Assembly: GCA_964568145.1 (NCBI GenBank)
Contig: CAZMOZ010000001.1
Coordinates: 195,536-259,535 of the forward strand
Length of the DNA stretch: 64,000 nucleotides
Direction: 5' to 3'
DNA from: an uncultured Verrucomicrobiota bacterium
GTDB taxonomy: Bacteria > Verrucomicrobiota > Verrucomicrobiia > Limisphaerales > J093
Shown here: positions 6,344-52,350 of the stretch, piece by piece
Position numbering within the stretch: position 1 is the stretch's first letter
Layout of the letters: the number at the start of each line of letters is the position of its first letter
Position numbers and translations under genes: made by a program
Notes under the pieces: generated by a model
Databases searched by the model: none
What the model saw: the letters and a program-made list of their open reading frames with translations, nothing else
Told to the model about the DNA's origin: nothing

Positions 6344-7129
6344 ATGACCGCTGCCTCCCAGACCACCGCGACGGCCGGGGCGCCTGCTCTGAAAATCGGC
6401 TGCTGCGGTTTCGCCGGCCACCAGGCCGCGTACTTCCGGGACTTCCGGCTGGTGGAGGTGCAGCAGACCTTTTACGACCCGCCACGCGTCACGACGGCTG
6501 AACGCTGGCGGGCGACGGCGCCGGCGGATTTTGAGTTCACGCTCAAGGCCTGGCAGCTCATCACGCACGAGGCGACCTCGCCCACCTACCGGCGGCTGCG
6601 AAGACCGCTGCCCGCCTCCGCCGCGCGCAACGTTGGCAGCTTCAAACCAACCGCCGAAGTCTGGCAGGCTTGGGAGCAAACCCGCGCCTTCGCCGCGGCT
6701 TTGCGCGCGACGCTCGTGGTGTTCCAGTGCCCGACGTCTTTCGGGCCGACGCGGGAGCACCGGGAGCAACTACGACAGTTTTTCCGCCGCGTGCAAGCGG
6801 AGGCTGGCGGCAGCCGGGACACTTGTCTGGTACTGGCTTGGGAACCGCGCGGGGACTGGAGCAACGCCGAGGTGCGGGAGTTGTGCGACGAACTTGGCTT
6901 GCTCCACGTCGTGGATCCGTTCGTGCGGTTACCGGTGACGCCGGGGCCGTTTTACTTCCGGCTGCACGGCATCGGCGGTTATGGGCATCGCTACTCCGAC
7001 GCGGAGTTGCACCGGCTGTTTGACTCGACCCGGCGTTTCCCGGCGGGCGGCCGCTGTTTGTTCAACAACGTGTCCATGCGGGAGAGCGCGTTGCGCTTTG
7101 CCCGTCTGCTGGCGGCCGCCGCTCCTTGA
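6344..7129 (+). CDS. DUF72 (UPF0759) family protein
   Basis: 261 aa. The blocks KIGCCGFAGHQAAYFRDFRLVEVQQTFYDPP and DFEFTLKAWQLITHE show the typical DUF72 pattern. Confidence 0.75.
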   Translation: MTAASQTTATAGAPALKIGCCGFAGHQAAYFRDFRLVEVQQTFYDPPRVTTAERWRATAPADFEFTLKAWQLITHEATSPTYRRLRRPLPASAARNVGSFKPTAEVWQAWEQTRAFAAALRATLVVFQCPTSFGPTREHREQLRQFFRRVQAEAGGSRDTCLVLAWEPRGDWSNAEVRELCDELGLLHVVDPFVRLPVTPGPFYFRLHGIGGYGHRYSDAELHRLFDSTRRFPAGGRCLFNNVSMRESALRFARLLAAAAP

Positions 7130-7398
7130 ATGCGGAAAGCCAGGGTGACCGCGGCAGACGTCGAGCAAACTACCGTTGCTGCCTTCCGGCCCTGGCGGGG
7201 TTCGTAAGTCGGCGTTCCGCGGGCCCTGGCAAATCCGCGGCGGAGATTAAGCGTCACGCGCCCCGGCCCGGCAAGGCAATTCAAGCCGCCGGCACTGGAA
7301 CGACCGGTGGCGGTTTGACACCGTGCTGCCGCAAGCTATACGTGAGGCCAACCGGTCCGCAGCGGACCACTTAGCAACCGTCAACAAAACCCGTGACC

Positions 7399-7878
7399 AT
7401 GCTCATTCCAGTAGGTTCCCAAGCCCCCGACTTCACCCTCAAGACCAAGACCGCCGCGGGCGTCGAGGACGTCAAGCTCAGCGACAACTTCGGCAAGAAG
7501 AACACCGTGCTGTTGTTCTTCCCGCTCGCCTTCACCAGCGTCTGCACGAAGGAAATGTGCGACATCACCAGCGGCCTGAACGCCTTCGCCGGGCTCAACG
7601 CCGACGTGATTGGCATCAGCGTGGACAGTCCGTTTGCGCAGGAGGCCTGGGCGGCCCGGGAGAAGATCGCGGTCAAGCTGGCCAGCGACCTGAACAAGAA
7701 GACCGCGGCCGATTACGGCGTGCTGTTGCCCGACCTGCTCGGCTTGGGCTCGGTGGCGGCCCGCGCCGCGTTCGTCGTGGACAAGCAGGGGATCGTCCAG
7801 TACAGCGAGCAGACGCCGACCCCGAAGGACCTGCCCAACTTCGAGGCGGTCAAGACCACACTGGCGAAGCTGAAGTAG
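7399..7878 (+). CDS. peroxiredoxin (AhpC/TSA thioredoxin-fold family)
   Basis: The protein reads MLIPVGSQAPDFTLK...KNTVLLFFPLAFTSVCTKEMC, with the peroxidatic Cys in FTSVCT. The ORF track starts at GTG 7393; ATG 7399 is the alternative used here. Confidence 0.85.
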   Translation: MLIPVGSQAPDFTLKTKTAAGVEDVKLSDNFGKKNTVLLFFPLAFTSVCTKEMCDITSGLNAFAGLNADVIGISVDSPFAQEAWAAREKIAVKLASDLNKKTAADYGVLLPDLLGLGSVAARAAFVVDKQGIVQYSEQTPTPKDLPNFEAVKTTLAKLK

Positions 7879-8006
7879 GCTCGGGCCGCGCGTTTGGCCC
7901 GGCAGGGTGGGGGACGGCCCGCCCGGACTGCTTTGGGACGTGTCTGTGTCGCGCGCCATGCGGGGCGTCTTGACCCTCGCCGGCGCGCCACTTACTTTCA
8001 CGGCGC

Positions 8007-8249
8007 ATGAAACCGGAAGTCGTCATCGAGTACTGCGCGGCTTGAAACTATGAGCCCAAGGCCGTCGGTCTGGCGGAGAAAATCCTTGGGTTCAAGTTGA
8101 ACCTCGGCTCGCTCAAGTTGATCCCGTCCACAGGCGGGGTCTTTGAAGTCAGCGTCAATGGCCGCAGCATCTTCAGCAAGAAGGCCACGGGGCAGTTCCC
8201 CGAACCAGACGCTGTTCTCAAAGAACTCAAGAAGCACCTCGCGGCCTGA
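8007..8249 (+). CDS. SelW/Rdx-family selenoprotein with in-frame TGA (Sec) at 8043-8045
   Basis: Hand translation gives MKPEVVIEYCAA-U-NYEPKAVGLAEKILGFKLNLGSLKLIPSTGGVFEVSVNGRSIFSKKATGQFPEPDAVLKELKKHLAA, then TGA at 8247. The CxxU redox motif after the first beta strand and the GGVFEV...FSKK...G.FPE blocks are the Rdx/SelW pattern. The gene is not in the ORF track because the TGA splits it. Confidence 0.8.
8055..8090 (+). promoter_or_regulatory. putative bacterial SECIS hairpin of the SelW-like gene
   Basis: CCCAAGG (8055-8061) pairs with CCTTGGG (8084-8090). An upper CCG/CGG helix carries an apical loop UCGGUCUGG. The GGUC sits at +25..+28 from the U of the UGA. Confidence 0.55.
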
Positions 8250-8302
8250 GCCCGAAACCGTGACGGCGCCCGGCGGGGCGCGCGGCGCTGGCTTTCCCGG
8301 TC

Positions 8303-8399
8303 GGAGAGTGATGGGTGCCTGGTGGCCCCCGCGGTCTTCAAAACCGTCGTGCCGGCACTCCGTGTCGGCAGGAGTGTTCGATCCGCTCCCTCTCCGCCA
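8303..8399 (+). tRNA. selC: tRNA-Sec (anticodon UCA at 8338-8340), CCA encoded
   Basis: 97 nt. The acceptor GGAGAGTG pairs with CCCTCTCC (one mismatch), followed by discriminator G and CCA. The D arm is long (GGGTGCC-TGGT-GGCCCCC). The anticodon loop is CTTCAAA. The variable arm has 9 bp (TGCCGGCAC-TCC-GTGTCGGCA). The T loop is TTCGATC. Confidence 0.8.
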
Positions 8400-8656
8400 C
8401 TTTCGCCAGGCTGCCCGGACGAAGGATCCGTCAAGTCCTGCCTTTCGGGGCTGCGACCAGCAAAACGCAATCCCCGCGGGCGGATCGCCCGCGGCACGGC
8501 TCCAGGCGAGGTCGCCGGGGCCATTCCGAACCGCCCGTTACTGGCACGAAAGTCGCCCAGTTGCCGGCAGGAATGCCGGAGCGCCCGGATCGCAGACGGC
8601 CGTTTTCAAGCCACGTTCGCTAACGTCTTTGCCTGGATTGAAAGGAGGTGATCCGC

Positions 8657-9712
8657 GTGTCGCGTGAGCAGATTCTTCGCCTGACCGCGCTGTCATCCTG
8701 CGCGGGTTGAGCCGCCAAGCTCGGCCAGAACGCCCTGGCGCAGGTCCTGCGCCAGCTTCCACGACCCTGCGACCCGCGGCTGCTGGTCGGCGCCGCGACC
8801 GCCGATGACGCCGGGGTGTTTCGTCTCGATCGCGACCGCGCGCTCGTGCAGACGGTGGACTTCTTCACGCCCATCGTGGACGACCCGTTCCTGTACGGAC
8901 AGATCGCCGCGGCAAACTCGCTGTCCGATGTCTATGCGATGGGTGGCCGCCCGCTGACCGCGCTGAACATCGTCGGCGTGCCCGAGGAAACCGTGCCGCC
9001 GGAGGTCGTCGCGCGGATGCTCCGTGGCGGGGCGGTCAAGGCGAAGGAAGCCGGCTGTGTCGTGCTTGGCGGCCACACGATCAAGAACCCCGAGCCCATC
9101 TACGGCCTGGCCGTGACCGGCTTGGTCCACCCGCGCCGCCTGATCACCAACGCCGCGGCGCAGCCCGGCGACGTCCTGGTGCTCACCAAACCGCTCGGCA
9201 CCGGCATCGTCACCACCGCCATCAAGCGCGGCCTTTGCCCGCCGGGCCTTTCGGCGAAGGCCATTCGTTCCATGCGTGCGCTCAACACGGTCGGCGCGGC
9301 GCTGGCCGAACGCCGTTTCGTGCGCGCGGGCACGGATGTGACCGGCTTCGGCCTGCTGGGCCATCTGGGCGCACTTTGCCGCGCCAGCGGCTTGTCGGCG
9401 GAACTTCGCGCCGGCGCCATCCCGGTGCTGGGGCCGGGCGTGTGGGATTTGATCGCCCAAGGCTGCGTCCCGGGCGGCACGCGCGCGAACCTGAAGACCG
9501 CCGCCGCGTGGACCGACTTCGCCAGCGGCGTGACCGACGTGCGGAAGTTGCTGCTGGCCGACGCCCAGACCAGCGGCGGCCTGTTGCTTTGCGTGCCGGA
9601 AAGTCGCCTGGCCGCTGTGCTGACCAGGTTAAAACGGCACCGGACCCTGGCCGCGGCGGTGGTGGGCCGGATTGAGAAGGCCGGCGCGGCGCGTATCCGC
9701 GTCGAGCCGTAG
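8657..9712 (+). CDS. selD: selenide, water dikinase SelD, selenocysteine-containing form (TGA at 8708-8710)
   Basis: An AAAGGAGGTG Shine-Dalgarno (8641-8650) precedes GTG 8657. Translation gives VSREQILRLTALSSCAG-U-AAKLGQNALAQVLRQL..., which runs in frame into the 8816..9712 ORF (DFFTPIVDDPFLYGQIAAANSLSDVYAMGGRP, GGHTI). The Sec sits at the position of the SelD active-site Cys. Confidence 0.9.
8735..8755 (+). promoter_or_regulatory. putative SECIS hairpin of selD
   Basis: A perfect 9-bp stem forms between CTGGCGCAG and CTGCGCCAG around GTC. If the closing pair opens, the loop becomes GGUCC. The apex lies at +36..+39 from the U of the UGA. Confidence 0.5.
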
Positions 9713-44310: not shown

Positions 44311-45699
44311 GTGCGCGCCATGCCTGATGCCCTCCGCGCCATTCCCGCGGTCGAAAAAGTCCTGCAAGCCCTCGGGCCGCTGGATCTGCCGCGGCCCACG
44401 CTCCTGGCCGTCGTGCGACGCGAGCTGGCGGCGTGGCGCCAAGCGCCGGCGGTGGCAGACTTCGCGACGGTGGTTGCCGGCGTGCGCGCCGCGTTCGAGC
44501 GCCTGCGCGCGTCCCGGCTCCAGCCGGTCATCAACGGCACGGGCGTGTTGTTGCACACCAATCTGGGCCGCGCGCCGCTGGGTCCGGCGGCGGTCGAGGC
44601 GCTGGGCGCGCTGGCGGCGGCCTACAGCAACCTCGAGTTCGATCTCGCCACCGGCGAGCGCGGCGGCCGGGCCGGCTACCTCGAGCACAATCTCGCCCTG
44701 TTGTGCGGCGCCGACGCCGCCACGGTGGTCAACAACTGCGCGGCGGCGTTGGTGCTGATTCTCCGCCACTTCACCGCCGGCGCGCGCAAGCAGGTGGTGG
44801 TCTCACGCGGCGAGCTGATCCAGATCGGCGGCGGCTTTCGCATCCCGGAAATCCTCGAATCCAGCGGCGCCGTCCTGCGCGAGGTCGGCACGACCAACCG
44901 CACCACCGTGGCCGACTACGCCCGCGTGATCGGCCGCGACACCGCGCTGATCCTCCAGGTCCACCGCAGCAACTTCTTCATGGGCGGCTTCGTCGAGTCG
45001 CCGGCCACCGCGGACCTCGCCGCGCTGGCGCGCAAGCGGCGCGTGCCGCTCGTCGCGGATCTGGGCAGCGGCGCGGTGTTTGACACCACCGGTTTGGGTG
45101 TGGACGAGCGCGCGCCGACGCCCGCCGAAGCGCTCAAGCGCGGCGCGGACCTAGTCTGCTTCAGTGGCGACAAGCTCCTGGGCGGCCCGCAGGCGGGGAT
45201 CATCACCGGCCGGGCGAAGCTCGTGGCGGCCTTGAAGCGCAAGCCGCTGTTCCGCGCGTTGCGCTGCGACAAGCTGTGCTTCGCCGCCCTCCAGGCCACT
45301 GTGGATGAACTGCTCGCGGCGCAGCCGGATTCGCCCCCGCCGGGCCGCCTGCCTTTGGTGGACATGTTGCGCGCGCCGACCGAGACGTTGCACGCGCGCG
45401 CGGAGGCACTTGTGACGGCGCTGGCCGGCCTGCCGGTCCAGGCGAGCGTCGGGGCGGGGCAGGGGCAGGTGGGCGGGGGCACGTTGCCGCGCGCGGTGAC
45501 TGCCTCAGTCACGTTGGACCTCGCGCCCCAACAGACGTCACTGGCCGGGTTCGCCGCGCGACTGCGCGCCGCGTCGCCGCCGGTGATCGGCTACGTGGCG
45601 GGCGGGCGGCTCAAGCTGGATCTGCGGACGGTTTTCCCCTGGCAGGACGACCTGCTGGCGCGCGCGATCACCGAGGCGTGCCGGGGTGCTGGGCCTTAA
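44311..45699 (+). CDS. selA: L-seryl-tRNA(Sec) selenium transferase (selenocysteine synthase)
   Basis: 462 aa from GTG 44311; ATG 44320 is an alternative start. Diagnostic blocks are LRAIPAVEKVL, VINGTGVLLHTNLGRAP, VVNNCAAALVL, GELIQIGGGFRIPEI, REVGTTNRT and FSGDKLLGGPQAGII (PLP lysine). Confidence 0.9.
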   Translation: MRAMPDALRAIPAVEKVLQALGPLDLPRPTLLAVVRRELAAWRQAPAVADFATVVAGVRAAFERLRASRLQPVINGTGVLLHTNLGRAPLGPAAVEALGALAAAYSNLEFDLATGERGGRAGYLEHNLALLCGADAATVVNNCAAALVLILRHFTAGARKQVVVSRGELIQIGGGFRIPEILESSGAVLREVGTTNRTTVADYARVIGRDTALILQVHRSNFFMGGFVESPATADLAALARKRRVPLVADLGSGAVFDTTGLGVDERAPTPAEALKRGADLVCFSGDKLLGGPQAGIITGRAKLVAALKRKPLFRALRCDKLCFAALQATVDELLAAQPDSPPPGRLPLVDMLRAPTETLHARAEALVTALAGLPVQASVGAGQGQVGGGTLPRAVTASVTLDLAPQQTSLAGFAARLRAASPPVIGYVAGGRLKLDLRTVFPWQDDLLARAITEACRGAGP

Positions 45700-46157: not shown

Positions 46158-47849
46158 TCACCCGGCGCGTGGTGGACTGGCGAGATCGCGGCCGGTGTCG
46201 CCGAGCGCGGCCCAGGCCAGGCCTTGGAAGGCCGGCACCTCCGCGGCGATCTGGTTGAACAGCGCCTCCAAGCCGGCGGGTGAGCTTTCGCCGGTAAGCC
46301 GTTCCCAGATTTCGCTCAGAAATTCCACCTCGGGCCGGGCCTCACCGGGCGGCTCGACGGCCTTGAAAAATCGCTGCACCCGGCCATGCACGTTGGTGAA
46401 GCTGCCCCGCTTTTCCGCGTGGGCGCAGCCGGGCAGCACGTAATGCGCGCGCGCCGCAGTCTCGTTGGGCAGGATGTCGCTCATCACCAGCAGCTCCAGC
46501 CGGCCGAGCGTTTCCGCGTCGAAGCCGTGGCGGGTGAGGTCCTCGCCGAAGACCAGCAGGCTGGTGATGGTGCCGGCGCGGATGCGCTCGGCAAAGACGC
46601 CGAGGTTCGAGCCCGCCGGTTCGGCGGCGAGCCCGAGCACACGGGCCCCGGTGCTGTTCGGGTTCTTGTCCGCGTGGACCAGCAGGCGGTCGCTGTCGCC
46701 AGTGCGCGGCACCGTGTCGGTGACCGCGCCGATACGCTGGGCGAGTTTGCGCAGCAGGTACAACTCCTCGTTGCTGAGGCGGGCCGACGCGACCAACGCC
46801 ACGTGTCCGGGCGCGGCCGCCTTCAAGCGGTCGGCAATTTCCACGAGCGCCCGCGTCCAGGTGGCCGGCTGGCCGCCGATGTTGACGTGGCGCAGGCGGT
46901 CGGCGCGGCCGATCCATTTGTAGTTGAGCCGGCCGAAGTCGCAGAGCCAACTGCGGTTGACGGCGTCGTTTTCGCGCGGGGTGTAGCGGTAAACTCGGTC
47001 TTCGCGCGAGCCGATGAGGATGTTGCACCCGGTGCCGCAACTGGCGCAGAGGGACTTGGTTTCCTTCAGGAACCACACGCGCATCTGGAAGCGGAAATCC
47101 TTCGAGGTCAGCGCGCCCACCGGACAGATGTCCACGGTGTTGAGCGTGTAGTTGTTGTCGAACGCCCGGCCCGGCCAGGCAGTGAGGGTGCTGTAGCCGC
47201 CGCGGTTGACGATGCCCAGCGCGTCGTCGCCCACGATGTCGCGCGTGAACCGGATGCAGCGGGAGCACAGGATGCAACGCTCGTCGTCGAGCATGATGCG
47301 GGGGCCGAGGTCCACCTGCTTGGGCTTGTGGACCTTCGTCTCGACGAAGCGGCTGGCGGCCTGGCCGTATTCGACCGAGTACTCCTGGAGCTTGCACTCG
47401 CCGGCCTGGTCGCAGATCGGGCAGTCTAGCGGGTGGTTGATGAGCAGAAACTCGAGCACGCTCTCGCGCATGGCTTTCACGGCGGGCGTCTCGGTGTAAA
47501 TCTCCATGCCGGGCGCCACTGGTGTGGCGCAGGCGATGGCGGGCCGCGGCGACTTGTTGATGATGAGCGACCCGTCGGGATTCCTCAGCGGCCGGCGGTC
47601 CGGGCCCAGCGCGGGCAGACCGTACTCGACCAAACACATGCGGCAGTTGCCGGCGATGGGCAGCCGATGGTGGTAGCAGTAATGCGGCACCGTGACGCCG
47701 GCGGCGGCGCACGCCTGGAGCATGGTCGGCGTCGTGGGTTGCCCCTTCCAGTCCGGCAGCAAGCGGGGCACGGTGACGGCCCGGCCGTTCACGTTGACGG
47801 TGAGAGTGTCAGGGGCGGCTGTCCCCTGGGAGACCGCGTTCGTGCTCAT
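46158..47849 (-). CDS. nuoG: NADH-quinone oxidoreductase subunit G (short form)
   Basis: An internal ATG at 47849 gives MSTNAVSQG... and overlaps the nuoF stop (ATGA). The 2Fe-2S motif is CYHHRLPIAGNCRMCLVE, followed by HPLDCPICDQAGECKLQ and CILCSRCIRF. The C-terminal part is molybdopterin-oxidoreductase-like. Confidence 0.85.
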   Translation of the reverse strand: MSTNAVSQGTAAPDTLTVNVNGRAVTVPRLLPDWKGQPTTPTMLQACAAAGVTVPHYCYHHRLPIAGNCRMCLVEYGLPALGPDRRPLRNPDGSLIINKSPRPAIACATPVAPGMEIYTETPAVKAMRESVLEFLLINHPLDCPICDQAGECKLQEYSVEYGQAASRFVETKVHKPKQVDLGPRIMLDDERCILCSRCIRFTRDIVGDDALGIVNRGGYSTLTAWPGRAFDNNYTLNTVDICPVGALTSKDFRFQMRVWFLKETKSLCASCGTGCNILIGSREDRVYRYTPRENDAVNRSWLCDFGRLNYKWIGRADRLRHVNIGGQPATWTRALVEIADRLKAAAPGHVALVASARLSNEELYLLRKLAQRIGAVTDTVPRTGDSDRLLVHADKNPNSTGARVLGLAAEPAGSNLGVFAERIRAGTITSLLVFGEDLTRHGFDAETLGRLELLVMSDILPNETAARAHYVLPGCAHAEKRGSFTNVHGRVQRFFKAVEPPGEARPEVEFLSEIWERLTGESSPAGLEALFNQIAAEVPAFQGLAWAALGDTGRDLASPPRAG

Positions 47850-49243
47850 GCCGAAGTTGGTTGCTGTTGCACAGCCTGGCCCGCCTTGCCCCGGGCCGCA
47901 AACTCGTCCCTGAACTTGCTCACGACGCTTTGCACCGGCCAGGAACAGGCCTCGCCAAAGGCGCAGATTGTCCGGCCGCCAGGGATGTTGTCCGCGATGT
48001 GCAGCAGGTAATCCGCGTCCTCGGGCCGGCCGGCGCCGCGGGTCAGGCGGCGCAGGGCCTTGGCCAGCCAGAGCGAGCCTTCGCGGCACGGTGTGCACTG
48101 GCCGCAGCTTTCATGGGCGAAGAACTCGCAGATGTTCGCCAGCGCGGCCACGATGTCGGTCGAGTCGTCCAGGACGATGATCGCGCCGGAGCCGGACATG
48201 CTGCCGGCGGCTATGAGAGTGGTGAAGTCGTACGGCAGATCGAGCACGTCCTTCTCCTGCTCGGCCTCGCGCCCGTCGGTCCCGCGCACCTTGAGCTTCA
48301 CCTTTTCGCCAGCCTTGAAGACCTTGGCCGAGGCGCCGCCGGGAATGACGGCCTTCAACTGCCGGCCTTCGCGCAGACCGCCGCCAAAAGCCGGGTCGAA
48401 GATCAGCTCGCGCAAGGTGGCCTTGCCCACTTCGATTTCATAATAGCCGGGCCGGCGCACGTGGCCGCTGAGGCAGACAATGCGCGTGCCGGTGTTGTTC
48501 GGCGTGCCCAGCCGGGCGTACTCGGCGCCGCCCATCGCCAGCACGTGCTTCACCGCGCACAGGGTTTCGACGTTGTTGACGATGGTGGGGCAATGGTACA
48601 GCCCCAGCACAGCCGGGAAGTAGGGCGGCTTGATGCGCGGGTACGGGCGCTTGCCTTCGAGGGACTCGATCAGCCCGGTCTCCTCGCCGCAAATGTAGGC
48701 GCCGGCGCCGCGATGCACGTGGATCTCGAGATCGTACCCGCTGCCTAGGATGTTCTTGCCCAGGAGGCCGGCGGCGCGGGCCTCGGCCAGGGCGTCGTTC
48801 AGAATGCGCGCGCCCGCGACGAATTCGCCGCGGATGTAGATGAAGGCCAGATGGGCGTCGTTGGCATAGCTCGAAAGGATCATGCCTTCGAGCAACTGAT
48901 GCGGATCCTTGTAGATGATCTGCTTGTCCTTGAACGTGCCCGGCTCGGACTCGTCGGCGTTGCAGATCAGGTAGATGGGCTTGCCGCTCTTGCGGTCCGC
49001 CAGCGACCACTTCATGCCGGTGGAAAAGCCGGCGCCGCCGCGGCCGCGCAGGCCCGAGATCGTGACCTCCTGGCGGAGCTGTTCCTGCGGGCTGAGCGTC
49101 TTGCCGTCGGGCAGGGTGCGCGGTTTGAGGTCCAGGGCCTGGCGCAAGACGGTGTAACCGCCGTGGCGGCGGTAGCACTCGAGATCCGGCGTGTAGCCGG
49201 GGTTGTCCAGGTGCTGGAGGATGAGGCGGCGCTCGGCAGGCAT
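47846..49243 (-). CDS. nuoF: NADH-quinone oxidoreductase subunit F
   Basis: 465 aa. Diagnostic blocks are GLRGRGGAGFSTGMKW, YLICNADESEPGTFKD and ESCGQCTPCREG. Confidence 0.92.
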   Translation of the reverse strand: MPAERRLILQHLDNPGYTPDLECYRRHGGYTVLRQALDLKPRTLPDGKTLSPQEQLRQEVTISGLRGRGGAGFSTGMKWSLADRKSGKPIYLICNADESEPGTFKDKQIIYKDPHQLLEGMILSSYANDAHLAFIYIRGEFVAGARILNDALAEARAAGLLGKNILGSGYDLEIHVHRGAGAYICGEETGLIESLEGKRPYPRIKPPYFPAVLGLYHCPTIVNNVETLCAVKHVLAMGGAEYARLGTPNNTGTRIVCLSGHVRRPGYYEIEVGKATLRELIFDPAFGGGLREGRQLKAVIPGGASAKVFKAGEKVKLKVRGTDGREAEQEKDVLDLPYDFTTLIAAGSMSGSGAIIVLDDSTDIVAALANICEFFAHESCGQCTPCREGSLWLAKALRRLTRGAGRPEDADYLLHIADNIPGGRTICAFGEACSWPVQSVVSKFRDEFAARGKAGQAVQQQPTSA

Positions 49244-49292
49244 GGCAGCTTGACTCTCAGGCGCGCCCCGCTAGGGTGCGTTCGCCGTGGTT

Positions 49293-49366
49293 TGCCCGAT
49301 GGTGTAACGGTAGCACAGCAGACTCTGGATCTGTTTGTCTAGGTTCAAATCCTAGTCGGGCAGCCA
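49293..49366 (+). tRNA. tRNA-Gln (anticodon CUG), CCA encoded
   Basis: 74 nt. The acceptor TGCCCGA pairs with TCGGGCA (U1-A72, as in bacterial tRNA-Gln). The D arm is GTGT-AACGGTA-GCAC. The anticodon arm is GCAGA-CTCTGGA-TCTGT. The T arm is CTAGG-TTCAAAT-CCTAG. Discriminator G and CCA follow. Confidence 0.85.
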
Positions 49367-49451
49367 ACCTCAAGGCGGCCCTTCCCGCAACTTTACAGAC
49401 CTGGCTCGCCGGCCTGCGGCGCACCCCTGGTTTGCGGCAGCCAGCCATGCG

Positions 49452-49937
49452 TCAGGCGGGCTTGCCGACGATTTCGTCCGCCTTTTCGAGCGTGACCGCC
49501 TCGTGGCAGGCGTCGTTGACCATCATCACCGGCGCGGTGCCGCAACCGGCCAGACACTCGACGAACTCCACGGTGAACCGCCCGTCCGGCGTGGTTTGCG
49601 GGCCGTGCGCTGCGGCATCTAGGCCCAGTTTCGCGCAAAGATGCCGGTGCAGTTCGTGCGAGCCGGCCAGCGCGCAGCTCAGCGTGCGGCAGACTTTGAT
49701 GTGAATCCGCCCCACCGGCTCCTGGCGGAACATCGGATAGAAGGTGACCAGCTCGAGGATGTTGATCGGCTGCAGGTCCAGCTTGCGGGCCGTCCATTCC
49801 ATCGCCGCCGGGCCCAGGTAGCCGAAACGGTCCTGGAGGGCGTGCAACACCATGACGCTGGCGCTGCGCTTCTGCGGGTAGCGCGCAATCAGCGCGTCAA
49901 TTTCGGCCTCGAGCGTCGCTGGCACGGCGAAGCTCAT
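49452..49937 (-). CDS. nuoE: NADH-quinone oxidoreductase subunit E
   Basis: 161 aa. The 2Fe-2S cysteines lie in CRTLSCALAG and ECLAGCGTAPVMMVND. The ATG overlaps the nuoD stop (ATGA). Confidence 0.9.
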   Translation of the reverse strand: MSFAVPATLEAEIDALIARYPQKRSASVMVLHALQDRFGYLGPAAMEWTARKLDLQPINILELVTFYPMFRQEPVGRIHIKVCRTLSCALAGSHELHRHLCAKLGLDAAAHGPQTTPDGRFTVEFVECLAGCGTAPVMMVNDACHEAVTLEKADEIVGKPA

Positions 49938-51202
49938 CGGTCACACTCTCCCATGACGAAGTCCAGCGAGCCCAGGATCGAGACCACGTCGCTGATCATG
50001 TGGCCCGGCAGCAGGTGGGACAGGATGCTGAGGTTCACGAAGGACGGCGCGCGGATTTTGAGCCGGTACGGGACGCCGCCGCCGCGGCTGTGGATGTAGA
50101 AGCCCAGTTCGCCCTTGGGGTTCTCCGCGCCAAAATACACCTCGCCGGGCGGCGCGTTGACACCTTGCGTGACCAGCATGAACTGGTGGATCAATTCCTC
50201 CATGCGGGTCAGCACCGTTTCCTTGAGCGGGAGCACGATCTTGCCGTCGTCCACGTTCACCGGGCCGCCCGGCAACTGGTCGAGGCATTGATGCAGGAGG
50301 CGCACGCTTTGCCGCATTTCCTCCATGCGCACCAGGTAGCGGTCGTAGCAGTCGCCCACCGAGCCGACCGGCACGTCGAACTGGAGCCGATCGTAAACGA
50401 GGTACGGATGCACCTTGCGCACGTCGTAGTCCACGCCGCTGCCGCGGAGGTTCGGTCCGGTCAGCGCGAAGCTGACCGCGTCCTCACGGCGGATGACGCC
50501 GATGTCGCGGGTGCGGTCCACCCAGATGCGGTTGCGGGTCAGGAGGGTCTCGACGTCGTTGATGGTGGTGACGACCTCGCGGGCGAAGCGCCGGCACTGG
50601 TCGGTCCAGCCGGGCGGCAGGTCGCGCGCCAGGCCGCCGATGCGGGTGTAGCTGGTGGTGAAGCGCGCACCGGTGAGCGACTCGCACAGGTTGTAGATCT
50701 TCTCCCGCTCGGTGAAGGTGTGCAGGAACACGGTCATCGCGCCCACGTCCATGGCGAAGCAGCCCACGCCGAGCAGGTGTGAGGAAATGCGCGCCAGCTC
50801 GCAGCAGATCACCCGGATGTACTGGCAGCGCGGCGGCAGCTTGTCGTGGATGCCCAGCAGCTTTTCCACCGCGAGGGCGTAAGCCACGTTGTTCGCCAGC
50901 GGCGCCAGATAATCCAGCCGGTCCGTGTACGGGATGAACTGGGTCCAGGTCATGGACTCGGCGATCTTCTCGTCGCCGCGATGCAAATAACCCACGTCCG
51001 GCGTGGCGCGGATGATGACCTCGCCGTCCAGCTCGAGCTGGATGCGCAACACCCCGTGCGTCGAAGGGTGCGACGGCCCCATGTTCAGGACCATCTTTTC
51101 GCCGGGCAAATCGCCAGCGTCCGTTGTATCGGCCACCGAAGCCGTGGCGTCAGCCGCGCGGGCGGCGGTGTCTTTGAAATCGAATTCTTGGACCTGGGGC
51201 AT
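49934..51202 (-). CDS. nuoD: NADH-quinone oxidoreductase subunit D
   Basis: 422 aa. The blocks are MVLNMGPSHPSTHGVLR and DRLDYL, with the C-terminus LGSLDFVMGECDR. Confidence 0.92.
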   Translation of the reverse strand: MPQVQEFDFKDTAARAADATASVADTTDAGDLPGEKMVLNMGPSHPSTHGVLRIQLELDGEVIIRATPDVGYLHRGDEKIAESMTWTQFIPYTDRLDYLAPLANNVAYALAVEKLLGIHDKLPPRCQYIRVICCELARISSHLLGVGCFAMDVGAMTVFLHTFTEREKIYNLCESLTGARFTTSYTRIGGLARDLPPGWTDQCRRFAREVVTTINDVETLLTRNRIWVDRTRDIGVIRREDAVSFALTGPNLRGSGVDYDVRKVHPYLVYDRLQFDVPVGSVGDCYDRYLVRMEEMRQSVRLLHQCLDQLPGGPVNVDDGKIVLPLKETVLTRMEELIHQFMLVTQGVNAPPGEVYFGAENPKGELGFYIHSRGGGVPYRLKIRAPSFVNLSILSHLLPGHMISDVVSILGSLDFVMGECDR

Positions 51203-51208
51203 GTCGCC

Positions 51209-51787
51209 TCACTCCTCAACGTTCCGCACCCGCGGCTCGCGCTCGATCGCGTCCTTGCCGCCGGGCGCGGTCACAAACGGCCCGCCTTCCAGCGGCGCGG
51301 GCGCGGTGAAGGCGACCTCCGGCAGTTCGGTGGGCTTGCCGGCCAGCGGGAAGTCCTTTCGCAGGGGAAAGTACGGATAGCCTTCCCACGTGAGAATCCG
51401 CCGCAAGTCCGGATGCCCGCGGAACCGGATGCCCATCATGTCGTAAATCTCGCGCTCGTGCCAGTCGGCGGTGCGCCAGATGCCGGTCACGGTGGGCAGC
51501 TCGGACTTTTCCTCGCTCACCGCGGTTTTCAGGCGCAGGTGGCAGCGGTGGCCCAGGCCGTACAGTTCGTAAACCACCGTCCAGCGCGGGTCGTCGCCGT
51601 AGTTGTCCACGCTGCTGATGTCGAGCAGGAAGTCGAGGCCCAGTTCTGTCCGCGCGTACTCGCACACCTCGGGCATCCGCCCGGCGTCGGCCACGGTCAG
51701 GGTGATTTCGCCGCGGAACTCCACCGGCTCGGAGACCAAGTCACCGAAACGGGTGCGCAGCCGGGCGGCGAGGTCGCGGGCGGTCAT
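51209..51787 (-). CDS. nuoC: NADH-quinone oxidoreductase subunit C
   Basis: An internal ATG at 51787 gives [15 protein letters not shown]... and overlaps the nuoB stop (ATGA). The blocks are [24 protein letters not shown] and [11 protein letters not shown]. The longer track ORF (to 52222) runs out of frame across nuoB. Confidence 0.88.
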
Positions 51788-52350
51788 GCGGGTTGGAGCG
51801 CTTCCGGGCGGGCAGGGGACGGGGGGACCGGCGCGGCAGCCGGCGGCCGTTGCTTCAGCGTCTTCAACACGGGCTCGCGCTGGACCTTGCCCTGCAACTT
51901 GAGCAGCGCGTCCAACAGGGCCTCGGGTCGCGGCGGGCAACCGGCCACGTACAGGTCCACCGGCAGGATGCGGTCCACGCCTTGCAGGACGGCGTAGCTC
52001 CGGTACATGCCGCCGGTCGAGGCGCAGGCGCCCATGGCGATGACCCATTTGGGATCGGCCATCTGTTCGTAAAGCCGCTTGACCACCAGCGCCATCTTGT
52101 ACGTGACCGTGCCGGCCACGATCATCACGTCCGACTGCCGCGGCGAAAAGCGCATCACCTCCATGCCGAAGCGCGAGATGTCGTAGCGGCTGGCCCCGGT
52201 GCCCATCAACTCGATGGCGCAACAGGCCAGCCCCATCGGCATGGGCCAGATGGAGTACTTGCGAAACCAGTTGATGGCGGCGTCCAGCCGGGTGACCACC
52301 ACGTCACCTTCAATCCTGGAATCGTAACCGATGACGCTGCTCTTGCTCAT
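51784..52350 (-). CDS. nuoB: NADH-quinone oxidoreductase subunit B
   Basis: 188 aa. The N2-cluster cysteines lie in [18 protein letters not shown] and GCPPRPE. Confidence 0.92.

Follow-up and report, generated by a model that had tools for sequence, protein, structure and literature searches.

A predicted SelW-like selenoprotein gene with an in-frame TGA beside the tRNA-Sec and selD genes of an uncultured Verrucomicrobiota bacterium

The window analyzed here, a 64-kb stretch of DNA from an uncultured Verrucomicrobiota bacterium, carries a short reading frame upstream of a tRNA-Sec gene. The frame opens with ATG 8007, contains one internal in-frame TGA and closes with a second TGA (Table 1). 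Its translation reads MKPEVVIEYCAA*NYEPKAVGLAEKILGFKLNLGSLKLIPSTGGVFEVSVNGRSIFSKKATGQFPEPDAVLKELKKHLAA*, with each TGA shown as an asterisk. The original prediction described an 80-codon frame from this ATG with the TGA at 8043-8045 as its sole interruption, and all of these codons are present in the sequence. The peptide given there matches the translation, except that the final two Ala residues had been dropped. The sequence has a GC content of 68%, and real genes of this DNA display a third-position GC bias; the values for 8007-8249 are 0.56/0.38/0.77 at the three codon positions. At this locus, the mechanical ORF list reports only a 50-aa piece with a TTG start (8097-8249). The statement that ORF finders miss the gene therefore holds in that the full frame is absent from the list, but "truncated" describes the outcome better than "missed". 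Gene callers applied to related contigs likewise report fragments of 50-58 aa. Three overlapping ORFs (7998-8237 and 8048-8524 on the minus strand, 8143-8667 on the plus strand) were considered as genes and rejected, as none of them matches Pfam or shows the GC3 signature.

Components of the Sec machinery lie nearby. Both neighbors named in the original prediction were recovered, the peroxiredoxin gene upstream by Pfam and the tRNA-Sec gene (selC) downstream by ARAGORN and Rfam. The selC gene begins 53 nt after the stop codon of the SelW-like frame. It is followed by selD, whose product supplies the selenium donor. This selD gene has an in-frame TGA of its own at 8708-8710 (…LTALSSCAG-U-AAKLGQ…) and is itself a predicted selenoprotein gene; the mechanical ORF list contains only the part from 8816 onwards. 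A selA gene is also present in the window, 36 kb from the selC/selD cluster and convergent with a nuo-like gene. The ORFs scanned within the 64-kb window included no selB, and this gene may be located elsewhere in the genome. A rough scan for other selenoprotein genes, based on in-frame TGA codons flanked on either side by high GC3, returned only three same-frame pairs of neighboring genes, and its thresholds missed both true cases.

Table 1. Coordinates of the SelW-like locus and of the Sec-related genes in the window
Feature	Position	Strand	Details
Cys-type peroxiredoxin (AhpC/TSA), upstream neighbor	7393..7878	+	Pfam E = 1.2e-33; own TTGACA box at 7315
Putative promoter	7970..7998	+	-35 TTGACC 7970-7975, 17-nt spacer, -10-like TACTTT 7993-7998
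SelW-like / Rdx-family selenoprotein CDS (predicted)	8007..8249	+	80 residues, Sec = residue 13, terminal stop TGA 8247-8249
Redox motif Cys10-Ala-Ala-Sec13 (predicted; TGC GCG GCT TGA)	8034..8045	+	Sec codon 8043-8045
Candidate bacterial SECIS element, within coding sequence	8046..8098	+	Fold, orthologue pairing, covariation
tRNA-Sec (selC), anticodon UCA	8303..8399	+	ARAGORN; Rfam RF01852 62.2 bits vs gathering score 47, E = 2.9e-11
selD (selenophosphate synthetase)	8657..9712	+	GTG start, GGAGG Shine-Dalgarno, AIRS + AIRS_C domains
selA (selenocysteine synthase)	44311..45699	+	Pfam SelA PF03841, E = 2.5e-114

The surrounding gene content offers further observations. A bacterial small SRP RNA occupies 7135-7231 on the minus strand, between the DUF72 and peroxiredoxin genes (Rfam RF00169, 75.5 bits, E = 4.5e-16). 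In the nearest metagenomic relative, the near-identical contig L001, the order is the same: radical SAM, EF-P, DUF72, peroxiredoxin, Rdx, selD and DUF5696. The peroxiredoxin was considered as a conserved partner of the SelW-like protein and rejected, as the adjacency recurs only in that contig. Moreover, the peroxiredoxin, DUF72 and DUF5696 proteins gave no tblastn match with E <= 1e-8 in 80 genome loci. Positions 18190-44146 of the minus strand carry a series of very large genes (598-1410 aa) that encode FG-GAP/ASPIC-UnbV repeat proteins and proteins with Ig, PA14 or lectin domains; five FG-GAP proteins in this region are paralogous. A nuo cluster follows at 46161-52350 on the minus strand, with NuoG-, NuoF-, NuoE-, NuoD- and NuoB-like genes. 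An internal start is probably the true one for the NuoG-like gene, as its ORF in the mechanical list shares ~250 nt with the NuoF-like ORF. The NuoG-like gene beside selA (46161-48098, minus strand) was also considered as a Sec-interrupted formate dehydrogenase. This was rejected, as the frame does not continue past the stop. The NuoG-like ORF contains no Sec codon.

The product of the interrupted frame belongs to the Rdx family. With Cys substituted at the TGA, it scores 70.1 bits with the Pfam Rdx profile PF10262 (cut-off 22.6, E = 1.9e-19), and the match spans residues 4-75, corresponding to profile positions 1-73 of 74. Residues 14-80, the 67 aa that follow the TGA, match the same family on their own (47.4 bits, E = 2.2e-12). 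The NCBIfam model TIGR02174 (CXXU_selWTH), whose cut-off is 34.2 bits, scores 59.5 bits, and 55.0 bits when the Sec residue is entered as X. Scores for both models exceed the curated cut-offs; the proposed Rdx/SelW-like assignment is thereby upheld, and the lack of Rdx similarity that would have spoken against it is not what the profile searches returned. The NCBIfam equivalog NF041051 (SelTWH_Campy) reaches 81.9 bits with Cys and 74.2 bits with X, under its 88-bit cut-off. Judged by these profile scores, the protein is a relative of the Campylobacter-type equivalog and not a member, with membership at the subfamily level only.

Comparison with solved structures points in the same direction. 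The bacterial Rdx proteins 2FA8, 2OKA, 2OBK, 2OJL, 3DEX and 2P0G give full-length alignments (E = 2e-14 to 2e-8), and weaker matches in the structure set include MIEN1/C17orf37 (2LJK, E = 5e-6) and mouse SelW (2NPB, E = 7e-4). Residue U13 is aligned to the second Cys of the CxxC motif in 2FA8, 2OKA and 2OBK (YCTQC). The CxxU motif and the comparison with Cys homologues put forward in the original prediction thus agree, with C10-A-A-U13 falling on the CxxC of solved Rdx proteins. A thioredoxin-like fold is predicted for the product. The Cys-type Rdx proteins (Atu0228 2FA8, 2OKA, 2OBK, 2OJL, SAV_2001 3DEX and 2P0G) share the position of the redox motif and the PSTGG.FE core with the window protein. 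However, they carry CxxC instead of CxxU, are ~105 aa long with C-terminal extensions and involve no recoding. Mammalian SelW (2NPB, CxxU) and MIEN1/C17orf37 (2LJK, CxxC) also belong to the Rdx family and hold the motif at the same position; for these proteins, as for the window protein, a thiol-dependent redox role is presumed.

Catalogues of bacterial SelW-like selenoproteins date back to 2005 (PMC1088965, PMC1794560), and the CxxU-containing family is established as a predicted one (PMC1088965, PMC1794560, PMC13188914). A 2026 review lists it as "predicted with high confidence" and not among the verified families (PMC13188914). Examples come from Geobacter sulfurreducens, Campylobacter jejuni and Desulfotomaculum reducens (PMC1088965, PMC1794560, PMC1242214). 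With its CxxU motif, the family was the most abundant selenoprotein family in Sargasso Sea data (PMC1088965). Few Cys homologues exist in Sec-using organisms (PMC1794560). Loss or truncation of these genes in annotation is documented (PMC4607533), and length cut-offs have been lowered to capture the proteins (PMC1242214). The window gene resembles the family in size (~75-85 aa), in the N-terminal beta1-CxxU, in the GG.FEV...SK..TG.FP core and in the scarcity of Cys homologues among its close relatives. In both, a SECIS with G in the apical loop follows directly after the UGA. Nothing essential differs; the window gene is of the Verrucomicrobiota type and lies in a SelW-like/selC/selD(U) cluster. 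It is a typical member of a family that has long been known, as has its loss in annotation.

Conservation of the internal TGA was assessed across relatives. More than 550 of them turned up when one genome per species was scanned, and the best 80 of these >550 were taken for analysis. Within this set, the aligned codon is TGA in 79/79 scorable relatives, the 80th being truncated by a contig end, and neither TGC nor TGT occurs at the Sec codon in any of the 79. Most of the best 80 are Verrucomicrobiota; Fictibacillus and other Bacillota, Planctomycetota, Acidobacteriota and others are represented as well. Identity to the relatives fetched is 45-77%. The Cys three codons before the TGA is invariant in all 71 distinct orthologous sequences. 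Across the eight codons 5' of the TGA, mean entropy is 0.78/0.67/1.29 at codon positions 1/2/3, indicating mainly third-position variation. The proposal that the TGA encodes Sec is strengthened accordingly: orthologues retain the TGA and coding is conserved on both sides of it, and the contrary pattern, a stop in orthologues with no downstream coding signal, did not appear.

Database entries reflect the same interruption. Protein searches returned mostly fragments of 50-58 residues labeled "Rdx family / selenoprotein W-related". The DNA beneath several of them contains the same upstream segment, MKPEV(V/I)IEYCAA-TGA-(N/D)YEP..., and the annotated start sites vary between genomes. Such fragments are the signature of gene callers that stop at the Sec codon. 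Two public SelW-like orthologue entries, P0001 and P0013, have W at the Sec position. In the DNA of P0001 (locus L003, 337-573), the codon is TGA, and translating that DNA does not reproduce the sequence of the entry. Because the underlying codon is TGA, the W in P0001 is attributed to a translation table in which TGA encodes Trp. One 103-aa homologue (P0018) reads …VVIEYCVPGNAE…, with Gly where Sec or Cys is expected, which may reflect a variant motif (CxxG) or an error in the frame or the assembly.

The RNA downstream of the TGA supports a recoding signal. The hairpin announced after the TGA in the original prediction is borne out: the 58 nt from the TGA fold into a long hairpin, and the segment 8046-8098 has a dG of -26.4 kcal/mol. 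By comparison, 200 dinucleotide shuffles average -13.9 +/- 2.8 (z = -4.4), with 0/200 as good. Its conserved core is a 6-bp stem (8062-8067/8071-8076) enclosing the loop 8068-8070 (GUC), and the stem occupies columns 20-25 and 29-34 when numbered from the U of the UGA. This core is found in nearly all orthologues; the long lower stem that extends it to 8046-8098 in this genome is not conserved across them. Loop residue G8068 (G26) is invariant, and U8069 (U27) is conserved in at least 90%. Over 74 distinct sequences, 88% of the core cells hold standard pairs; shifting the 3' partners by 1-3 columns lowers this share to 22-52%. Two pairs display compensatory double changes, from C-G to G-C or A-U in 10 sequences and from C-G to U-A or G-U in 3 sequences. 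Two further core pairs alternate, one among U-G, U-A and C-G, the other between G-U and A-U. Because the hairpin overlaps the conserved peptide segment A-V-G/S-L-A/T, its conservation is due in part to constraint on the protein, and the compensatory changes coincide with amino acid changes (AVS-LT to AAS-LA). As an internal comparison, a 9-bp stem that likewise carries a GUC loop lies after the Sec-UGA of selD.

Bacterial SECIS elements typically present a small apical loop with G/U ~20-25 nt 3' of the UGA. With its conserved core and compensatory changes, the hairpin at 8062-8076 looks as expected for an element of this type. It also lies within the bSECISearch limits, which place the loop 16-37 nt from the UGA and call for a G among its first positions. 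Eukaryotic SECIS elements are kink-turn structures located in the 3' UTR, where SBP2 and eEFSec read them. The candidate in the window, unlike these, is inside the ORF immediately 3' of the UGA and would be of the SelB-read type. In Escherichia coli fdhF, a hairpin follows just after the UGA, and SelB contacts the G-U in a small apical loop ~20-25 nt away. That loop is GGUC with G23/U24, and the corresponding loop region of the SelW-like hairpin reads G-GUC-U with G26/U27. The loop G/U of the SelW-like hairpin is one codon further from the UGA than in fdhF. Two other differences from fdhF are that no bulged U was identified in the window hairpin and that its lower stem is not conserved among orthologues.

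The genomic linkage between the SelW-like gene and Sec machinery is recurrent. In 22/60 related loci scanned, the SelW-like gene is followed at a distance of 11-217 nt by tRNA-Sec in the same orientation. The selD gene adjoins it in 30/80 loci, co-directionally in Verrucomicrobiota and divergently in Fictibacillus, and 28 of these 30 selD genes contain TGA at the same place and are Sec forms. A one-strand cluster of SelW-like(U), tRNA-Sec and selD(U) recurs in Verrucomicrobiota (7970-9712, plus strand, in the window; loci L006-L062). In the literature searched, whose coverage is incomplete, no description of a SelW-like/selC/selD cluster was found.

Transcriptional signals were compared across these loci. 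In 20/22 orthologous loci, TTGAC occurs 35-51 nt 5' of the SelW-like ATG, where 0.07 occurrences would be expected per 80 nt; the 22 SelW-like/selC spacers contain no copy. On the plus strand of 7100-8800, the only TTGAC boxes are at 7315, before the peroxiredoxin gene, and at 7970, before the SelW-like gene. A strict sigma-70 consensus scan of 7300-8750 called no promoter; the assignment of the TTGACC/TACTTT pair as a promoter is a comparative one and is accordingly worded as putative. No terminator-like site was found on the plus strand of 7300-8750. A canonical terminator-like site is present in only 2/22 SelW-like/selC spacers, and many spacers end in T-rich runs. Only 8 nt separate the -10-like TACTTT from the ATG, and the SelW-like gene lacks a Shine-Dalgarno sequence, unlike selD with its GGAGG. 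The SelW-like mRNA leader may therefore be very short or absent. Taken as a comparative pattern, these features suggest that SelW-like, selC and selD could be co-transcribed as one operon.

Two alternative readings deny that the internal TGA encodes Sec. If TGA 8043 were a true stop, the locus would be either a pseudogene left by the decay of an Rdx gene, or two frames, an upstream ORF of 12 codons and an independent protein of ~50 residues that starts at TTG 8097. Such an arrangement would account for the 50-aa frame in the mechanical ORF list and for the many "Rdx family" fragments of 50-58 aa in databases. However, those fragments would be devoid of beta1 and the CxxU active site, which define the family, and their starts differ from genome to genome, as gene-caller artefacts would. 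Conservation of the 12 codons that precede the TGA is at the protein level, as changes fall mostly on third positions and the Cys never varies, and the SECIS is conserved too. An invariant TGA among the scorable relatives (best 80 of >550) is not expected of a pseudogene, and a true stop at this codon is considered highly improbable. It is also conceivable that the gene is a Cys-type Rdx gene whose TGC or TGT was turned into TGA by a mistake in sequencing or assembly, or that the TGA is read as Trp or another standard amino acid. The W in P0001 and P0013 would agree with this, as would the abundance of CxxC Cys-type Rdx proteins in Proteobacteria. Yet the DNA of P0001 has TGA, and the codon is repeated in 79 independent assemblies. 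Moreover, TGA ends the SelW-like gene and other reading frames of the window, and is thus a normal stop here, and a dedicated tRNA-Sec gene is found 53 nt away. The chance of an error or of decoding as a standard amino acid is regarded as negligible.

A further alternative accepts a genuine Sec-containing SelW-like protein and assigns it a different role. Instead of a general antioxidant oxidoreductase, it would be part of a selenium module co-transcribed with selC and selD. Within such a module, it might act as a redox partner of SelD or a selenium handler, or the ORF might serve as a sensor that couples Sec-dependent translation to the expression of tRNA-Sec and selD. The same-strand tRNA-Sec directly downstream, the adjacency to predominantly Sec-type selD genes in two arrangements, the distribution of TTGAC boxes and the scarcity of terminator-like sites all favor this possibility. 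Nevertheless, clustering of selenoprotein and Sec-trait genes through co-inheritance or co-transfer is already known, as for fdhA and selD (PMC1794560). The linkage is absent from most of the 80 relatives, and the T-rich spacer ends before the tRNA could be separate promoter or terminator elements. In addition, eukaryotic and Cys-type Rdx proteins function without a link to SelD. Overall, membership in a selenium module appears rather unlikely for this protein. The corresponding generalization for Verrucomicrobiota, in which the SelW-like ORF, tRNA-Sec and selD(U) form one TTGAC-driven unit and the SelW-like protein is a dedicated component or sensor of selenium utilization, is doubtful to a slightly greater degree. 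If true, the SelW-like protein would couple Sec-decoding capacity to the supply of tRNA-Sec and SelD, or would be the redox or selenium-handling partner of SelD. Either case would provide a first specific function for bacterial SelW-like proteins.

The reading preferred here is that 8007-8249 is very probably a functional gene for an 80-residue bacterial SelW-like selenoprotein of the Rdx family, in which the in-frame TGA is read as Sec. Under this reading, translation would start at AUG 8007, and UGA 8043 would not cause termination. The hairpin (core 8062-8076, loop G8068 U8069) would serve as the bacterial SECIS and recruit SelB-GTP-Sec-tRNA(Sec), leading to the insertion of selenocysteine as residue 13. 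Termination would occur at the other UGA (8247), which lacks a SECIS. The product may then function as a thiol-dependent oxidoreductase whose Cys10-x-x-Sec13 pair cycles between selenol/thiol and selenenylsulfide. In this scheme, the incorporation of Sec itself, the chemistry of the Cys/Sec pair and the action on a substrate in the cell are all predicted.

In practical terms, the locus calls for a correction of annotation. Both the SelW-like gene and the adjacent selD are due to be annotated at full length with Sec instead of in truncated form, and the same truncation error affects dozens of deposited genomes of Verrucomicrobiota, Planctomycetota and Fictibacillus. The organism very probably uses selenocysteine, with two or more predicted selenoproteins; otherwise, the biological addition is small. 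The only mildly new point is the conserved cluster of SelW-like, selC and selD(U) in Verrucomicrobiota, whose genes may have one promoter in common. The recurrent linkage of SelW-like genes with selC and selD in two phyla nonetheless offers a lead to the role of bacterial SelW-like proteins.

The spacers between SelW-like and tRNA-Sec genes contain one additional feature. No repeats of the kind described here occur in the 53-nt SelW-like/selC spacer of the window. Short tandem or inverted repeats are found in the spacers of loci L024, L027, L034, L048, L052, L054 and L062. They comprise (A)ACATCGAAC / GTTCGATGTT, GGATGTT in four copies and CGGAAT/ATTCCG, and are able to form long hairpins. These repeats may be REP-like elements, or they may mark sites of processing or termination.
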